DNA from: Burkholderiales bacterium
GTDB taxonomy: Bacteria > Pseudomonadota > Gammaproteobacteria > Burkholderiales > SG8-39
NCBI GenBank assembly: GCA_040902335.1
Contig: JBBDXL010000101.1
Span: 24,579-88,578 of the forward strand
Length of the DNA stretch: 64,000 nucleotides
Reading direction: 5' to 3'
Part shown: in pieces, positions 14,614 through 24,016 of the stretch
Position numbering within the stretch: position 1 is the stretch's first letter
Layout of the letters: the number at the start of each line of letters is the position of its first letter
Made by a program: the position numbers and the translations under genes
The notes under the pieces: generated by a model
The model's database searches: none
What the model was told of the DNA's origin: nothing
The model's input: the letters and a program-made list of their open reading frames with translations, nothing else

Positions 14614-15572
14614 ATCCCGAACAACCTTACCACGGCGAAATACACGAGCAGGCTGAGGATGTCCTGGATTACCGTGGCGATCGGCCCGCTGCCGAGCGCC
14701 GGGTCGCGCCCGAGGCGCGCGAGCCACCATGGGAGCAGCAGCCCGAGCGCCGCGGCCATGGTGCCGGCGGCGAAGATCGCGGTGGCCACCGCGCCCGCGA
14801 GGCGCACGTCGCCGAAGGCCACCCAGATGGGAAGGAAGCTGATGAGCCCGAGCGAAGCGCCGATCGCCATGCCGGTGCGCAGCTCGCCCGCGAGCAGGTG
14901 CGCGATGCCGCTGCGCGTGAGCGAAAGCCCGCGCACCGCGACCGCTTCGCTCTGCGTGCCGATCGCGTCCGCCAGGTAGACGATGCCGGGGACGAAAAAG
15001 GCGACGGCAATGTGGGCGCTCAGCGTCGATTCGAACCCCGCCATCGCCATCGTCGCCACCGCCGCGCCGGCGAGGCCCGCGAGCAGCCAGGGCAGGCGGT
15101 GGCGCACGCGCCGCATCGGCGGGTCCTCGATGGCGTGGCGCGCCTGGGACGATTCGCGCTGGATGCCGGCGAGCACGTGCAGGTCCTCTACGTGCTCGCG
15201 GCGCAGCACCTGCATCAGCGCCTGCGCGGGCATCACGCCCAGCGCGCGGCCTTCGGCGTCCACCACGGGCAGCGCGTCCACGCGGTGGTGCAGCGCGAGC
15301 GAGGCCGCATGCTCCTGGTCGGTGTTCGGGCAAACGCGAGGAAAGTCGCGATCCAGCGCCTTGTCGATCGGCTCATCCGGCTGCAGGGCCACCACCCGCG
15401 AGAGCGATGCGGCGCCCAGCAGGTGCCCGTGCGCGTCCACCCCGAGCACCAGCTCGAGGGTGGCGGGCTTCTCCGCGGCGAGCCGCGCGAGCACCGCAGC
15501 CGCGCGCTCGCCGGGCCGCGCGTGCAGCGCCGAGGCGACGACGTGCGCGCCTACGGTTTCGTGGTGCTTCAC
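14610..15572 (-). CDS. mgtE: MgtE-like Mg2+ channel (CBS pair + MgtE TM domain, short N-terminus)
   Basis: C-terminal 320 aa of ORF 14610..15926, from GTG 15572, which overlaps the ACP stop (GTGA). CBS-like region followed by PWLLAGLAGAAVA...DAIGTQSEAVAVRG...GSGPIATVIQDILSLLVYF. Confidence 0.85.
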   Translation of the reverse strand: MKHHETVGAHVVASALHARPGERAAAVLARLAAEKPATLELVLGVDAHGHLLGAASLSRVVALQPDEPIDKALDRDFPRVCPNTDQEHAASLALHHRVDALPVVDAEGRALGVMPAQALMQVLRREHVEDLHVLAGIQRESSQARHAIEDPPMRRVRHRLPWLLAGLAGAAVATMAMAGFESTLSAHIAVAFFVPGIVYLADAIGTQSEAVAVRGLSLTRSGIAHLLAGELRTGMAIGASLGLISFLPIWVAFGDVRLAGAVATAIFAAGTMAAALGLLLPWWLARLGRDPALGSGPIATVIQDILSLLVYFAVVRLFGI

Positions 15573-15808
15573 GCCGACTTGTTCGCGAGGTAGTCCACGA
15601 TCTGCTCGAGCGTGCCGAGCTTGCGGTAGTCGGCCTCGGGGATCTCGATCCTGAGGCGCTCGTTGAGGGCGACGAGGAAGTTGAGCCAGTCCATCGAATC
15701 GAGGTCGACCTGGTCGCGCAGGGGCTTCGCCGGCGCGACGTCCTCCAGCTCGGGCGCGATGCGCTTGAGCTCCGCGAGCACGATCTTCCTGATTTCCTCG
15801 GCATCCAT
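15569..15808 (-). CDS. acyl carrier protein (phosphopantetheine-binding)
   Basis: 79-80 aa. The DLDSMDWLNFLVAL motif contains the Ser for the 4'-PP arm. ATG 15808 shares one base with the E2 stop. Confidence 0.8.
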   Translation of the reverse strand: MDAEEIRKIVLAELKRIAPELEDVAPAKPLRDQVDLDSMDWLNFLVALNERLRIEIPEADYRKLGTLEQIVDYLANKSA

Positions 15809-16953
15809 CACAGATTCTCCGGTTCCTGCAGCAGGGCCGCGAGCGCGGCGAGGAAGCGCGCGCCGCGATGGCCGTCGCTCGCGCGATGGTCGCCGCCGAG
15901 GCTCGCGACCACCGCCGGCACGGCACCGATCATGCCATCTTCGGCCCAGGGGCGAGGCGCGACCCGGCCGAAGCCCACGATCGCCACCTGCGGCGGGAAG
16001 ATGATGGCAAACACTTCATCTACGCCCTGGTCGCCCAGGTTGGTTACGGTGATCGTGGGATCGCTCATTTCGGAGGAGCGCAGCGAGCCCGCGCGCGCGC
16101 GGCGCACGAGGTCGGCGAGTGCCTTCATCAGCTCGTCGAGGCTGCGTTCGGCCACATCGTGGATCGCGGGCGCGATGAGCCCGCCCTGCCTGAGCGAAAT
16201 CGCGATGCCGATATGGATGCCCTGCGCCGGCTCGAAGGCATCGTCCTTCCAGAAGCCGTTGAGATCGGGAAAATCCTTCAGCGCGCGCGCCACCGCCTTC
16301 AGCTGCAGCGCGCCCATCAGCAGCCTCTCGGTGACCGGCCGCTTCTCGTTGTACGTCGTGAGCCAGTCCTGCGCGCGCTGCATCGGGACCAACTGGGACA
16401 GGTAGTAGTGCGGGATCTCGCGCTTGGAGCGGCTCATCGCCGCGGCGATGGCTTTGCGCATCGCAAGCGCCTTGTCGGACGGCGGTGCCGCGGCGGGCGC
16501 GGGCGCCGGCTTTGCCCCGCCCTTCGCCGCTTTCTCCACATCCTCCACGGTCACCGCGCCGTGCGGCCCGCTGCCGGCGAGCGTCTCCACGTCTACACCC
16601 AGCTCGCGCCCATGCTTGCGCGCGGCGGGGGAGACGGGATGCCGTGACGGTGCCGGTGCCGGCGTCGGTGCCGGTGCGGCCGCCGGCGCAGCGGCAGGCG
16701 CTGCAGCAGGCGCCTCGCCGGCGGCGGCGAGCCGCGCCATGACTGTTTCCACCGGAATCGTCTCGCCCGGCTTCGTGATCAGCTCCTGCACCACGCCGTC
16801 CTGCCAGATCTCGACGTCCACGGCGGCCTTGGGCGTCTCCACCACGGCCACCACGTCGCCGCGCTTCACCGCGTCGCCCGGCTTCACCTTCCATTCGATC
16901 AGCTTGCCCTCGTCCATGTCGGCGCCGAGGGAGGGGAGCTTGAATTCGATCAT
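15808..16953 (-). CDS. 2-oxoacid dehydrogenase E2 (dihydrolipoamide acyltransferase) with one lipoyl domain
   Basis: Lipoyl domain (VVAVVETPKAAVDVE), Ala/Pro linker, E3/E1-binding domain (SPAARKHGRELGVDVETLAGSGPHG), and catalytic DHRASDG. Start is ATG 16953 (MIEFKLP, GAGG upstream) or TTG 16962. Confidence 0.9.
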   Translation of the reverse strand: MIEFKLPSLGADMDEGKLIEWKVKPGDAVKRGDVVAVVETPKAAVDVEIWQDGVVQELITKPGETIPVETVMARLAAAGEAPAAAPAAAPAAAPAPTPAPAPSRHPVSPAARKHGRELGVDVETLAGSGPHGAVTVEDVEKAAKGGAKPAPAPAAAPPSDKALAMRKAIAAAMSRSKREIPHYYLSQLVPMQRAQDWLTTYNEKRPVTERLLMGALQLKAVARALKDFPDLNGFWKDDAFEPAQGIHIGIAISLRQGGLIAPAIHDVAERSLDELMKALADLVRRARAGSLRSSEMSDPTITVTNLGDQGVDEVFAIIFPPQVAIVGFGRVAPRPWAEDGMIGAVPAVVASLGGDHRASDGHRGARFLAALAALLQEPENL

Positions 16954-17000
16954 GGCGGTCAACCTCAGGGGCTATGGTGCGTTGCACGCCTGCGCCGGAC

Positions 17001-23452: not shown

Positions 23453-23455
23453 CAA
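23442..23455. promoter_or_regulatory. FNR-type box TTGACCTGCATCAA shared by divergent genes
   Basis: Centre at 23448.5. GNAT ATG 23489 is at +40.5 and the ligase GTG 23407 is at -41.5. AACAAT (23477..23482) and CAGCAT (23419..23414, minus strand) sit at -12 to -7 of those starts. Confidence 0.75.
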
Positions 23456-23488
23456 GCGCCCTGCCGACCTGCCCGCAACAATCCTGCA

Positions 23489-24016
23489 ATGGCCGAGTAC
23501 CCGCTGCACCTCGTGCGCCGGCGCACGCTCGCCGACGGCCGCACCGTGACCATCCGCCCGATCCGCGCCGAGGACGAGATGCCCACGCGCGACTTCTTCG
23601 AGCACCTGTCCGCGGAATCGCGGCAGATGCGCTTCATGAAGTTCGTAAGATCGGTCTCCGACAAGCTGATCCACTTCTTCACGCACGTCGACTACGAAAA
23701 GCACATGGCGTTCGTGTGCGAGGCCGAGCTCGAGGGCCGGCCGACGCTGGTGGGCGAGGCGCGCTACGTCGGCAACCCCGACGGCCGCAGCTGCGAGTTC
23801 GGCGTGGTGATCGCGGACGACTGGCGCCACAGCGGCATCGCCGGGCTGCTGATGGACGCGCTGATCCGCGCCGCGCGCGCCAACGGCATGGAGACCATGG
23901 AGGGTCTGGTGCTGCGCGAGAACCGCGAGATGATGAAGTTCGTGCGCGCGCTCGGCTTCGAGGCGACGGCCGATCCGGTAGAGTCCACCCTGATGCGAGC
24001 GGTGAAGAAGCTTTGA
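23489..24016 (+). CDS. GNAT N-acetyltransferase resembling the catalytic domain of Pat-type protein lysine acetyltransferases
   Basis: 175 aa: [31 protein letters not shown]...[30 protein letters not shown]. Confidence 0.8.

Follow-up and report, generated by a model that had tools for sequence, protein, structure and literature searches.

A conserved five-gene cassette joining pyruvate dehydrogenase-type E1 and E2 genes and an AcsA-type ligase gene to a dedicated acyl carrier protein gene in low-oxygen gene islands

The transfer of a two-carbon unit from a lipoyl arm to an acyl carrier protein (ACP) is known from the quinocarcin (Qnc), naphthyridinomycin (Nap) and scleric acid (Scl) pathways (PMC6335953). 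The acetylation of acetyl-coenzyme A (acetyl-CoA) synthetase is known from Bacillus subtilis, where acsA is divergent from acuA and AcuA acetylates and inactivates AcsA (PMC8556138). A 2021 review sorts the bacterial GNAT lysine acetyltransferases into five architectural types; the regulatory N-terminal domains listed for types I to III are acyl-CoA-synthetase-like, cAMP-binding, NADP-binding and ACT domains, and a carrier-protein domain is nowhere mentioned in it (PMC8556138). In Syntrophus aciditrophicus, Acs1, an acetyl-CoA synthetase of the AMP-forming kind, is run in reverse (PMC4992975). Here we describe a locus assembled from parts of known kinds, found in a stretch of 64,000 nucleotides (nt) from a Burkholderiales bacterium (assembly GCA_040902335.1, contig JBBDXL010000101.1, positions 24,579 to 88,578), referred to below as the window. 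It comprises five genes, coding for an AcsA-type ligase, the alpha and beta subunits of a pyruvate dehydrogenase (PDH)-type E1, a lipoyl-bearing E2 and a dedicated ACP, together with a divergent gene for a Pat-like GNAT. The set had been pointed out in an earlier interpretation made from the letters of the window alone, called hereafter the sequence-only reading.

The conserved cassette and the partners of its carrier protein

Genomes were scanned with the ACP, one genome being taken per species, and the best 80 loci were kept from at least 397 confirmed relatives. The end of E2 is located within 400 nt upstream of the ACP gene in 64 of the 66 loci with enough sequence (species-representative genomes), and the ligase, E1-alpha, E1-beta and E2 genes all precede the ACP gene on the same strand in 51/54 loci. 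The sequence-only reading had proposed a neighbourhood search for precisely this gene order and had made its proposal depend on a conserved linkage of ACP with E2; the order is conserved and the linkage proved to be very strongly so. The ACP start overlaps the E2 stop in 54 of 82 pairs (ATGA or GTGA in 47, TGATG in 7), and the two genes are separated by a gap within 25 nt in approximately 13 more. The only fusions encountered join the ACP to a GNAT, neither E2-ACP nor ligase-ACP fusions being present among the 82 junctions or the 150 best family representatives. The cassette occurs in hundreds of species, in Beta-, Alpha- and Gammaproteobacteria, Desulfotalea, Rhodococcus and Streptomyces. The same five genes are found on annotated replicons of Burkholderia, Paraburkholderia, Cupriavidus, Ralstonia, Rhodococcus, Streptomyces, Methylocystis, Azospirillum and Photobacterium, and with E1-alpha and E1-beta fused in Leisingera and Sulfitobacter. 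The fused gene codes for about 666 amino acids (L085:6993-8990 and L087:4697-6700). In the sulfate reducer Desulfotalea psychrophila the cassette lies on a conjugative plasmid and is followed by a gene for a lipoate-protein ligase (L083:10526-11536), which suggests that the unusual lipoyl domain described below is nevertheless lipoylated. A conserved sixth gene was sought among the cassette neighbours and none was found: the commonest, Hsp20, is present in 16 of 88 sources, and the idea was rejected as the genes outside the five are not constant. The five-gene cassette is a conserved, horizontally mobile and E3-less unit tied to low-oxygen regulons.

The tie to low oxygen appears in both promoters and neighbours. 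The window holds 11 matches to the FNR-type palindrome TTGAT-N4-ATCAA with at most one mismatch, 0.2 being expected, and boxes of this type lie at promoter distance from the ligase and E2 genes (Table 1). In 33 of 57 related loci a TTGAY-N4-RTCAA box occurs between -300 and +40 of the ligase start, for an expectation of 1.3; in close relatives the box between ligase and GNAT keeps the same relative position, overlapping the ATG equivalent to 23452. The neighbours of the cassette in the window comprise HemN, a PAS kinase, nicotinate phosphoribosyltransferase, phosphoribosyl pyrophosphate (PRPP) synthetase, PolX, RtcB, trehalose genes and two universal stress proteins. In Rhodococcus they are universal stress proteins, Hsp20, phosphoenolpyruvate (PEP) synthase, phosphofructokinase, an Rv2632c-like protein and a GAF-kinase/response-regulator pair; in Streptomyces, universal stress proteins, Hsp20, a nitroreductase, an alcohol dehydrogenase and nicotinate phosphoribosyltransferase; in roseobacters, a universal stress protein, Hsp20, PEP synthase and pta-ackA; and in betaproteobacteria, pyruvate phosphate dikinase and subunits of a Hox-type hydrogenase. 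The cassette is usually located within islands of the hypoxia or dormancy type, in several phyla. The expression at low oxygen predicted by the sequence-only reading is supported by the enrichment in boxes and by these neighbourhoods.

Homologues of the ACP amount to 2984 sequences at 90% clustering, and the family comprises 171 clusters at 50% identity (E<=1e-10). The protein scores 35.9 bits against PF00550 (PP-binding), above the cutoff of 20.8, and falls outside the curated ACP equivalogs such as AcpP, the best match being NF002148 with 39.2 bits for a cutoff of 71. The motif DLDSMD, which contains the candidate attachment serine, is kept in 78 of 84 ACP sequences, so that the absence of a modifiable Ser, named beforehand as grounds for abandoning the idea, does not apply. 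The consensus IAPE..LRdQVDLDSMDWLN..IPE.DY is unusually conserved around the Ser and in helix III. No phosphopantetheinyl transferase was seen in the annotated cassette neighbourhoods that were viewed. Judged by these sequence features, the cassette ACP constitutes a separate ACP family with a conserved Ser predicted to be modifiable.

Both E1 subunits pass curated thresholds of the PDH type: E1-alpha scores 444 bits against TIGR03182 (cutoff 393.85), with human PDH E1-alpha as its best solved relative (239 bits), and E1-beta, with the domains Transket_pyr and Transketolase_C, scores 392 bits against NF006667 (cutoff 321). The thiamine diphosphate (ThDP) motif of E1-alpha reads GEGA instead of GDGA in the window and in 51 of 65 family members; the residue replaced by Glu in these proteins is the Mg2+-binding Asp of the motif. 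E2 displays a lipoyl domain (Lys42 in VETPKA), a peripheral-subunit-binding domain and a catalytic domain (His356 in DHRASDG), and is 29% identical to E. coli AceF, with a C-terminus two residues shorter. It does not reach the curated E2p/E2o equivalogs, the best being TIGR01349 with 214.6 bits for a cutoff of 445. The catalytic His, Asp and Thr are kept, with DHRASDG and TVTNLG intact. Both the ETPKA context and the intact DHRASDG reported in the sequence-only reading are therefore present, and ETPKA does depart from the canonical (T/S)DKA. This departure is a trait of the family and not special to this genome: the motif is (V)(D/E)T-x-K(A/S/G) with an invariant Lys, Asp precedes the Lys in 1/70, and in the other 69/70 E2s it is replaced by S, T, A, V, P or Q. 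The stated lack of an E3 gene was also borne out. A tblastn search of the window with E. coli Lpd gave no match at E<=1e-10 and no called gene carries an E3-type domain, and no Lpd homologue was found within 10 kb of the cassette in 87 loci (1.31 Mb). This absence is less unusual than had been implied, because E2 retains the domain that binds peripheral subunits and different complexes commonly share one E3.

The ligase scores 883.4 bits against NF003313 (cutoff 729) and 553 bits, near full length, against the 572-residue AcsA of PDB 9g79. In E. coli numbering, all 57 cassette ligases have the Trp-Trp acetate pocket W413/W414, the A10 lysine K609 of SGKIMRR and R584. Arg584 is the residue in contact with the 3'-phosphate of CoA (PMC10455477); its retention argues that CoA is still used and complicates the proposed handover from E2 to ACP. 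Arg526, a highly conserved residue that stabilizes the thioester-forming conformation (PMC10455477) and is present in both E. coli Acs and 9g79 AcsA, is replaced by Leu in 56 of the 57. Arg191 of Acs was considered as a sign of lost CoA binding and rejected, the alignment being ambiguous and 9g79 AcsA displaying the same 'ER' pattern.

The Pat-like GNAT that had been reported is present and divergent from the ligase. In NCBIfam it comes nearest to the GNAT part of mycobacterial Pat, with a score below the cutoff, and its nearest solved relatives are all of the Pat type: Pat/PatZ, the GNAT domain of SlPatA, MtPat and MsPat (9isq/9it0, 4nxy, 4ava, 4oll). The R/Q-x-x-G-x-G/A loop of such enzymes was read from alignments as WRHSGIAG, and the typical genomic association with AMP-forming acyl-CoA synthetases is observed. 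The GNAT is divergent from AcsA in the window and in six further loci (L005, L008, L009, L165, L168 and L169), and directly follows FadD-like AMP-forming ligases in 19 loci, the usual place of stand-alone GNATs of this clade. Several of the 50%-identity representatives of the ACP family are proteins of 260-300 amino acids with an N-terminal ACP, whose C-terminal domain is 42-45% identical to the window GNAT over its full length. A search with one such fusion returned approximately 40 further fused clusters with PF00550 and GNAT domains; the ACP Ser and the GNAT P-loop are invariant among the fusions. A metagenome scan (80-locus sample) yielded 37 fusions, 35 stand-alone GNATs and 7 cases in which the ACP and GNAT genes are adjacent.

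The position of these genes relative to the cassette varies. A fusion takes the place of the window GNAT, divergent from the cassette ligase, in L091, L098 and L154, where the cassette keeps its own ACP. It follows E2-ACP in L079 and L103; in the betaproteobacterial L079:9655-10753, E2 and a stand-alone ACP precede the fusion P0297, giving two carrier copies in tandem. An ACP-stop-GNAT arrangement comes directly after E2 in L017 and L080. Operons of acsA, ACP and GNAT with neither E1 nor E2 within 10 kb are found in L141 and L148, and also in L132, L137 and L144, and fusions stand alone in stress islands in L093 and L095. The ligases of the acsA-ACP-GNAT operons pass NF003313; in them, too, Arg526 is replaced by Leu, while the Trp-Trp pocket and the motif around the lysine are retained. 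As the ACP family is fused or operonic with GNAT and AcsA where E1 and E2 are absent, the ACP is not simply the carrier of E2. The ACP is genomically tied to E2 by translational coupling, to the Pat-like GNAT by fusion and adjacency, and to the Leu526 clade of AcsA by operons.

Organization of the window

Reading frames in the window were set by codon-position GC and start codons by scanning. The GC content is approximately 72%, and most of the long open reading frames (ORFs) are consequently shadows of real genes. The coordinates retained are collected in Table 1.

Table 1. Coordinates of the cassette genes and adjoining features in the window
Feature	Position	Strand	Remarks
P-type cation ATPase, type IIA	11914..14613	-	899 aa; downstream of the MgtE-like gene
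MgtE-like channel	14610..15572	-	320 aa; CBS and MgtE membrane domain; GTG start overlaps ACP stop (GTGA)
Dedicated ACP	15569..15808	-	79 aa; PP-binding; Ser38 in DLDSMD
Lipoyl-E2	15808..16953	-	381 aa; Pfam Biotin_lipoyl, E3_binding and 2-oxoacid_dh
Inserted restriction-modification pair	16974..19618	+	Pfam; outside the cassette; low GC
Eco57I-like N6-methyltransferase	16974-18689	+	Pfam
FNR-type box	17001..17014		TTGATCCAGGTCAA on the minus strand; ~50 nt upstream of E2
XamI-like endonuclease	18686-19618	+	Pfam
E1-beta	19795..20748	-	317 aa; ATG start overlaps E1-alpha stop (ATGA)
PDH-type E1-alpha	20745..21737	-	330 aa; GTG start overlaps ligase stop (GTGA)
AcsA-type acetate--CoA ligase	21734..23407	-	probable GTG start 23407, 557 aa; alternative ATG 23452, 572 aa
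FNR/Anr-type box	23442..23455		TTGACCTGCATCAA; between ligase and GNAT
Pat-like GNAT	23489..24016	+	175 aa; GNAT domain only; divergent from ligase; Pfam Acetyltransf_1/3

The layout agrees in most respects with the sequence-only reading. The 4-nt overlaps that link ligase, E1-alpha and E1-beta on the minus strand were recovered as GTGA and ATGA, and beyond the restriction-modification (RM) islet E2 and ACP meet in a TGATG junction, in which the ACP ATG and the E2 stop have one base in common, as claimed. The ACP given there as 80 residues exists, its length being 79 from the ATG and 80 only from an in-frame GTG one codon upstream. All genes listed for the set at 15569-24016 are present, with the correction that 24016 is the end of the GNAT on the plus strand and not that of the ligase. 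The operon does not end at the ACP: the MgtE-like gene starts on the ACP stop and the P-type ATPase comes next. For the ligase, the GTG start is likelier because the L001 homologue starts there and the NF003313 alignment begins at residue 16; the alternative ATG falls inside the FNR box. The centre of this box is located 41.5 nt upstream of GTG 23407 and, on the other strand, about 41 nt upstream of the GNAT ATG 23489, so that one box could drive two divergent, nearly leaderless transcripts.

The RM islet is a type II pair, inserted as approximately 2.8 kb between E1-beta and E2, genes that are contiguous in most relatives. Its GC content is 0.61-0.64, compared with about 0.70 in the surroundings. 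No nucleotide matches to it were found in related loci, with the exception of 89 bp by the E1-beta stop in L003. The islet was rejected as the source of the FNR box upstream of E2, as L001 has an identical box 45 nt upstream of E2 in a spacer with different genes. The RM insertion sits in a spacer already separating two units predicted to be FNR-driven and divides the cassette here. The box falls in the first 41 nt of the longest methyltransferase ORF, and the true start is therefore probably further downstream. Junctions within the cassette, that of E1-beta and E2 above all, are recurrent insertion sites (L001:6212-8828, L003:501-1214, L049:4567-8786, L066 and L074). The insert between E1-beta and E2 in L001 carries a CaCA-type antiporter, and other DNA within the cassette amounts to 4.2 kb in L049 and 5.6 kb in L066, there in the gap from ligase to E1-alpha. 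The E2-ACP junction is almost never interrupted.

Window proteins were also searched against the loci of relatives by tblastn. The MgtE-like gene and the ATPase were found behind the ACP only in the closest relatives, and are lineage-specific passengers. They belong to an ion-handling block at 9341-15572, co-oriented with the cassette, which holds the MgtE-like channel, the type IIA ATPase, a tandem universal stress protein and a Na+/H+ exchanger (TrkA-N). The channel coupled to the ACP stop lacks the usual N-terminal domain. Cation ATPases adjoin the cassette also in Rhodococcus koreensis and other loci. On the other side, by the GNAT, a plus-strand trio at 24070-27835 codes for a beta-phosphoglucomutase-family hydrolase, a trehalose-phosphatase-family protein and a GH65 glycoside phosphorylase/hydrolase, and looks like a set for trehalose or kojibiose turnover within the island. 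Further along, a second AMP-forming ligase of the window, FadD-like and of a kind that the same Pat-like GNAT clade directly follows in other genomes, is encoded at 36598-38427, and an ORF of 530 amino acids at 61553-63145 has good coding statistics (third-position GC 0.88) and no Pfam match at E<=1e-4.

Additional boxes of the FNR type are distributed over the window. A perfect one, TTGATCTCGATCAA (53288-53301), stands, within the stretch 53288-54993, directly upstream of a ThDP enzyme whose best match is benzoylformate decarboxylase, with a score of 419 below the cutoff of 493; it may be a second low-oxygen 2-oxoacid decarboxylase. Others are located at 3960-3973 between hemN and the gene of a PAS histidine kinase, at 34248-34261 upstream of the PolX-type polymerase gene, and at 34849-34862 between a 97-residue ORF with no Pfam match (34551-34844) and the PRPP synthetase gene. 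From its boxes, the whole window looks like an FNR regulon island.

Possible roles of the carrier protein

The interpretation that we favour, tentatively and at somewhat less than even chances, is that the ACP serves as an acetyl hub of E2, and probably of AcsA too, which feeds or informs the GNAT that controls AcsA. It can be summarized as follows. E1 would decarboxylate pyruvate and reductively acetylate the lipoyl group on Lys42 of E2, which a housekeeping E3 would re-oxidize. From E2 the acetyl group would go to CoA, which would take most of the flux, and also to the ACP, on the phosphopantetheine arm of Ser38. AcsA would interconvert acetate and the acetyl-thioester, probably also meeting the ACP arm. 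The Pat-like GNAT would read the acetylated or free state of the ACP, or use acetyl-ACP as a donor, and would acetylate AcsA on its catalytic lysine (SGK*IMRR), and possibly further proteins. The hub would thereby couple the acetyl supply derived from pyruvate and acetate to an acetylation switch in hypoxic dormancy, and would not be a plain replacement of CoA. Pyruvate and acetate are proposed as substrates since E1-alpha passes the PDH cutoff, the ligase keeps its Trp-Trp pocket, and pyruvate phosphate dikinase or PEP synthase are frequent neighbours. For each of the genomic ties of the ACP, we infer that its phosphopantetheine thiol would meet an acetyl-transferring active site. The interpretation draws on the constancy and overlap of the E2-ACP pair, on the ACP-GNAT fusions and the acsA-ACP-GNAT operons, on the Pat kinship of the GNAT and its place beside AMP-forming ligases, on the invariant target lysine, the acsA/acuA arrangement of B. 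subtilis and the shared Leu526, and on the Qnc precedent for a handover from E2 to ACP (PMC6335953).

Several points weigh against this interpretation. All the transfer steps that involve the ACP are inferred from gene linkage. An ACP donor is not required, because acetyl-CoA is the direct donor of Pat-type GNATs elsewhere and this GNAT has retained the RxxGxA pyrophosphate loop (WRHSGIAG). The GNAT is located within 10 kb of the cassette in only about one tenth of the ACP-centred genome loci, whereas the ACP is there essentially always, and many ACP-GNAT fusions are far from any acsA or E2. Translational coupling would yield E2 and ACP in approximately equimolar amounts, which fits a subunit or a substrate better than a signal of low abundance. 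Finally, a stand-alone ACP is kept beside a cassette-linked fusion (L079, L091, L098 and L154) and must therefore do what the GNAT-tethered copy cannot. The same observation suggests that the idea of an acetyl hub and that of a bulk carrier, discussed below, may both be partly true. In a stronger form of the proposal, hypoxic dormancy would have its own CoA-independent pathway of protein acetylation with the ACP as its centre; the ACP would be loaded from pyruvate by E1/E2 or from acetate by the Leu526 AcsA, and the GNAT would deliver the acetyl group to lysines of AcsA and other targets; we regard this form as unlikely.

The retention of the stand-alone ACP beside fusions is equally a point for the main alternative, a use of the cassette in which holo-ACP would replace CoA in bulk. 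Pyruvate would be converted to acetyl-S-ACP, from which AcsA, running in reverse with AMP and pyrophosphate, would form acetate and ATP, the GNAT merely throttling AcsA; the same set could run in the opposite direction. Such a path would provide ATP by substrate-level phosphorylation in hypoxia while sparing the CoA pool, and is plausible because AMP-forming acetyl-CoA synthetases can run backwards (PMC4992975). The conserved unit consists of exactly these five genes while the neighbours vary, the tight coupling of E2 and ACP suggests stoichiometric amounts, and the clade-specific change of Arg526 to Leu sits in the thioester-forming half-reaction. The surroundings also fit fermentation, with pyruvate phosphate dikinase, a Hox-type hydrogenase, alcohol dehydrogenase and pta-ackA. 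Nevertheless, all 57 ligases have Arg584, which touches CoA only at its 3'-phosphate (PMC10455477), and the ligase scores above the equivalog cutoff for acetate--CoA ligase and resembles the 572-residue AcsA of 9g79 closely. In Sulfitobacter pta-ackA adjoins the cassette, so that an acetyl-CoA route to ATP is already there; the two being side by side in that genus, the idea that Pta-AckA and the cassette are mutually exclusive alternatives was rejected. The fusions and the acsA-ACP-GNAT operons devoid of E1 and E2 would moreover be left unexplained. On balance this use of the cassette appears rather unlikely, if less so than the CoA-independent acetylation pathway. A further explanation is an ordinary, hypoxia-induced second pyruvate or acetoin dehydrogenase with an acetyl-CoA synthetase, dependent on CoA and on the E3 of the host, where the ACP would be an accessory (for example an octanoyl donor for the unusual lipoyl domain or a structural element) and no acetyl acceptor. 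E1-alpha, E1-beta and the ligase pass the curated PDH and AcsA cutoffs, and E2 has all its catalytic residues and the peripheral-subunit-binding domain. The acoXABC genes of C. necator likewise come without an E3. A lipoyl motif that departs from DKA could need special lipoylation, LipB normally takes its octanoyl group from octanoyl-ACP, and the ACP gene of the Desulfotalea plasmid is followed by one for a lipoate-protein ligase. An octanoyl donor is opposed by the acetate-sized pocket of the ligase, which makes octanoate loading impossible, by the lack of LipB or LipA homologues in the annotated neighbourhoods viewed, and by the housekeeping AcpP, which already supplies octanoyl-ACP. Nor are the links of the ACP to GNAT and AcsA where E2 is missing explained, and a surface as highly conserved as that of the ACP speaks for catalytic partners of a specific kind. 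We consider such an ordinary set improbable.

The sole characterized precedent for the transfer from a ThDP-E1 and lipoyl-E2 to an ACP raises the case of a starter-unit factory, in which E1/E2 would load a two-carbon unit on the ACP for a lipid or secondary-metabolite line, as QncN/L/M, NapB/D and SclQ1-4 do (PMC6335953). No ketosynthase, non-ribosomal peptide synthetase (NRPS), acyltransferase or phosphopantetheinyl transferase is found among the conserved neighbours, which are genes of stress, ion transport and fermentation; the E1 is of the PDH type and not transketolase-like, and the cassette is found in hundreds of species and on the conjugative plasmid of a sulfate reducer. The probability of a biosynthetic role is very low. 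The ordinary dehydrogenase and the starter-unit factory fit the data less well than the acetyl hub or the bulk replacement of CoA.

Relation to known systems

No description of the cassette, of the ACP-GNAT fusions or of the Leu526 ligase clade was found in the literature searchable here, and the cassette is apparently undescribed as a conserved module of primary low-oxygen metabolism. If the proposed role of the ACP is true, the textbook view of 2-oxoacid dehydrogenase complexes would change, as an E2 would serve a carrier protein outside secondary metabolism; in the CoA-independent form, a protein and not CoA would be the physiological acceptor of an E2 in primary metabolism. A Pat-type acetyltransferase that depends on or senses an ACP would mean a new input for protein acetylation in bacteria. 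Hosts of the cassette include Burkholderia, Cupriavidus, Ralstonia, Rhodococcus and Streptomyces, and the cassette lies in the same islands, of the lxa and DosR types, that underlie persistence at low oxygen. It therefore provides a handle on the management of acetyl units, CoA and ATP by obligate aerobes once respiration stops. As the components are small and soluble and cultured hosts exist, the question is directly testable.

The E1 above PDH cutoffs and the lipoyl, peripheral-subunit-binding and catalytic domains of E2 are shared with the PDH complexes with heterotetrameric E1 (mitochondrial, alphaproteobacterial and Geobacillus) and with AcoABC(L). The cassette differs from these in having no E3 within 10 kb, an E2 below the cutoffs with a shorter C-terminus, a replaced Asp in DKA, GEGA in most E1-alpha proteins and an ACP coupled to E2. 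With the acsA/acuABC locus of B. subtilis and the Pat-Acs switch it has in common an AcsA-type ligase divergent from a GNAT, the conserved SGKIMRR and a Pat-like GNAT, whereas AcuB and AcuC are absent. The ACP-GNAT fusions, or the ACP acting in trans, would represent a further type of acetyltransferase beside those of the review cited above, a sixth one if the CoA-independent pathway is true. Acs1 of S. aciditrophicus is relevant to the fermentative explanation as an AMP-forming synthetase working in reverse; it uses CoA and has no linkage to an ACP, E1/E2 or a GNAT.

The surroundings of the cassette resemble the lxa locus of Burkholderia cenocepacia and the actinobacterial DosR regulon, in which universal stress proteins, Hsp20, nitroreductase, a cation ATPase, regulators of the Anr/FNR or DosR type and acetate/alcohol metabolism are likewise encountered (PMC3721108). 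The cassette is not mentioned in the published lxa gene list nor in the M. avium and M. abscessus DosR papers; it is a module, so far undiscussed, of islands of the lxa/DosR type in other species.

There is also a likeness in gene content to QncN/QncL/QncM (quinocarcin), the naphthyridinomycin genes and SclQ1-4 (scleric acid), where a ThDP E1-like protein, a lipoyl/acyltransferase E2-like protein and a small dedicated ACP are encoded together (PMC6335953). Those systems are set apart by a transketolase-like E1, a glycolaldehyde unit derived from ketose phosphates, a location in NRPS clusters and the lack of AcsA and GNAT. Neither the transketolase-like E1 nor the NRPS/polyketide synthase context is found in the cassette, which has instead a PDH-type E1, lies in a hypoxia island and contains an ACP that is also tied to a Pat-like GNAT. 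Every part of the cassette is nonetheless of a known kind, and a transfer from E2 to ACP has its precedent in the Qnc, Nap and Scl systems (PMC6335953).

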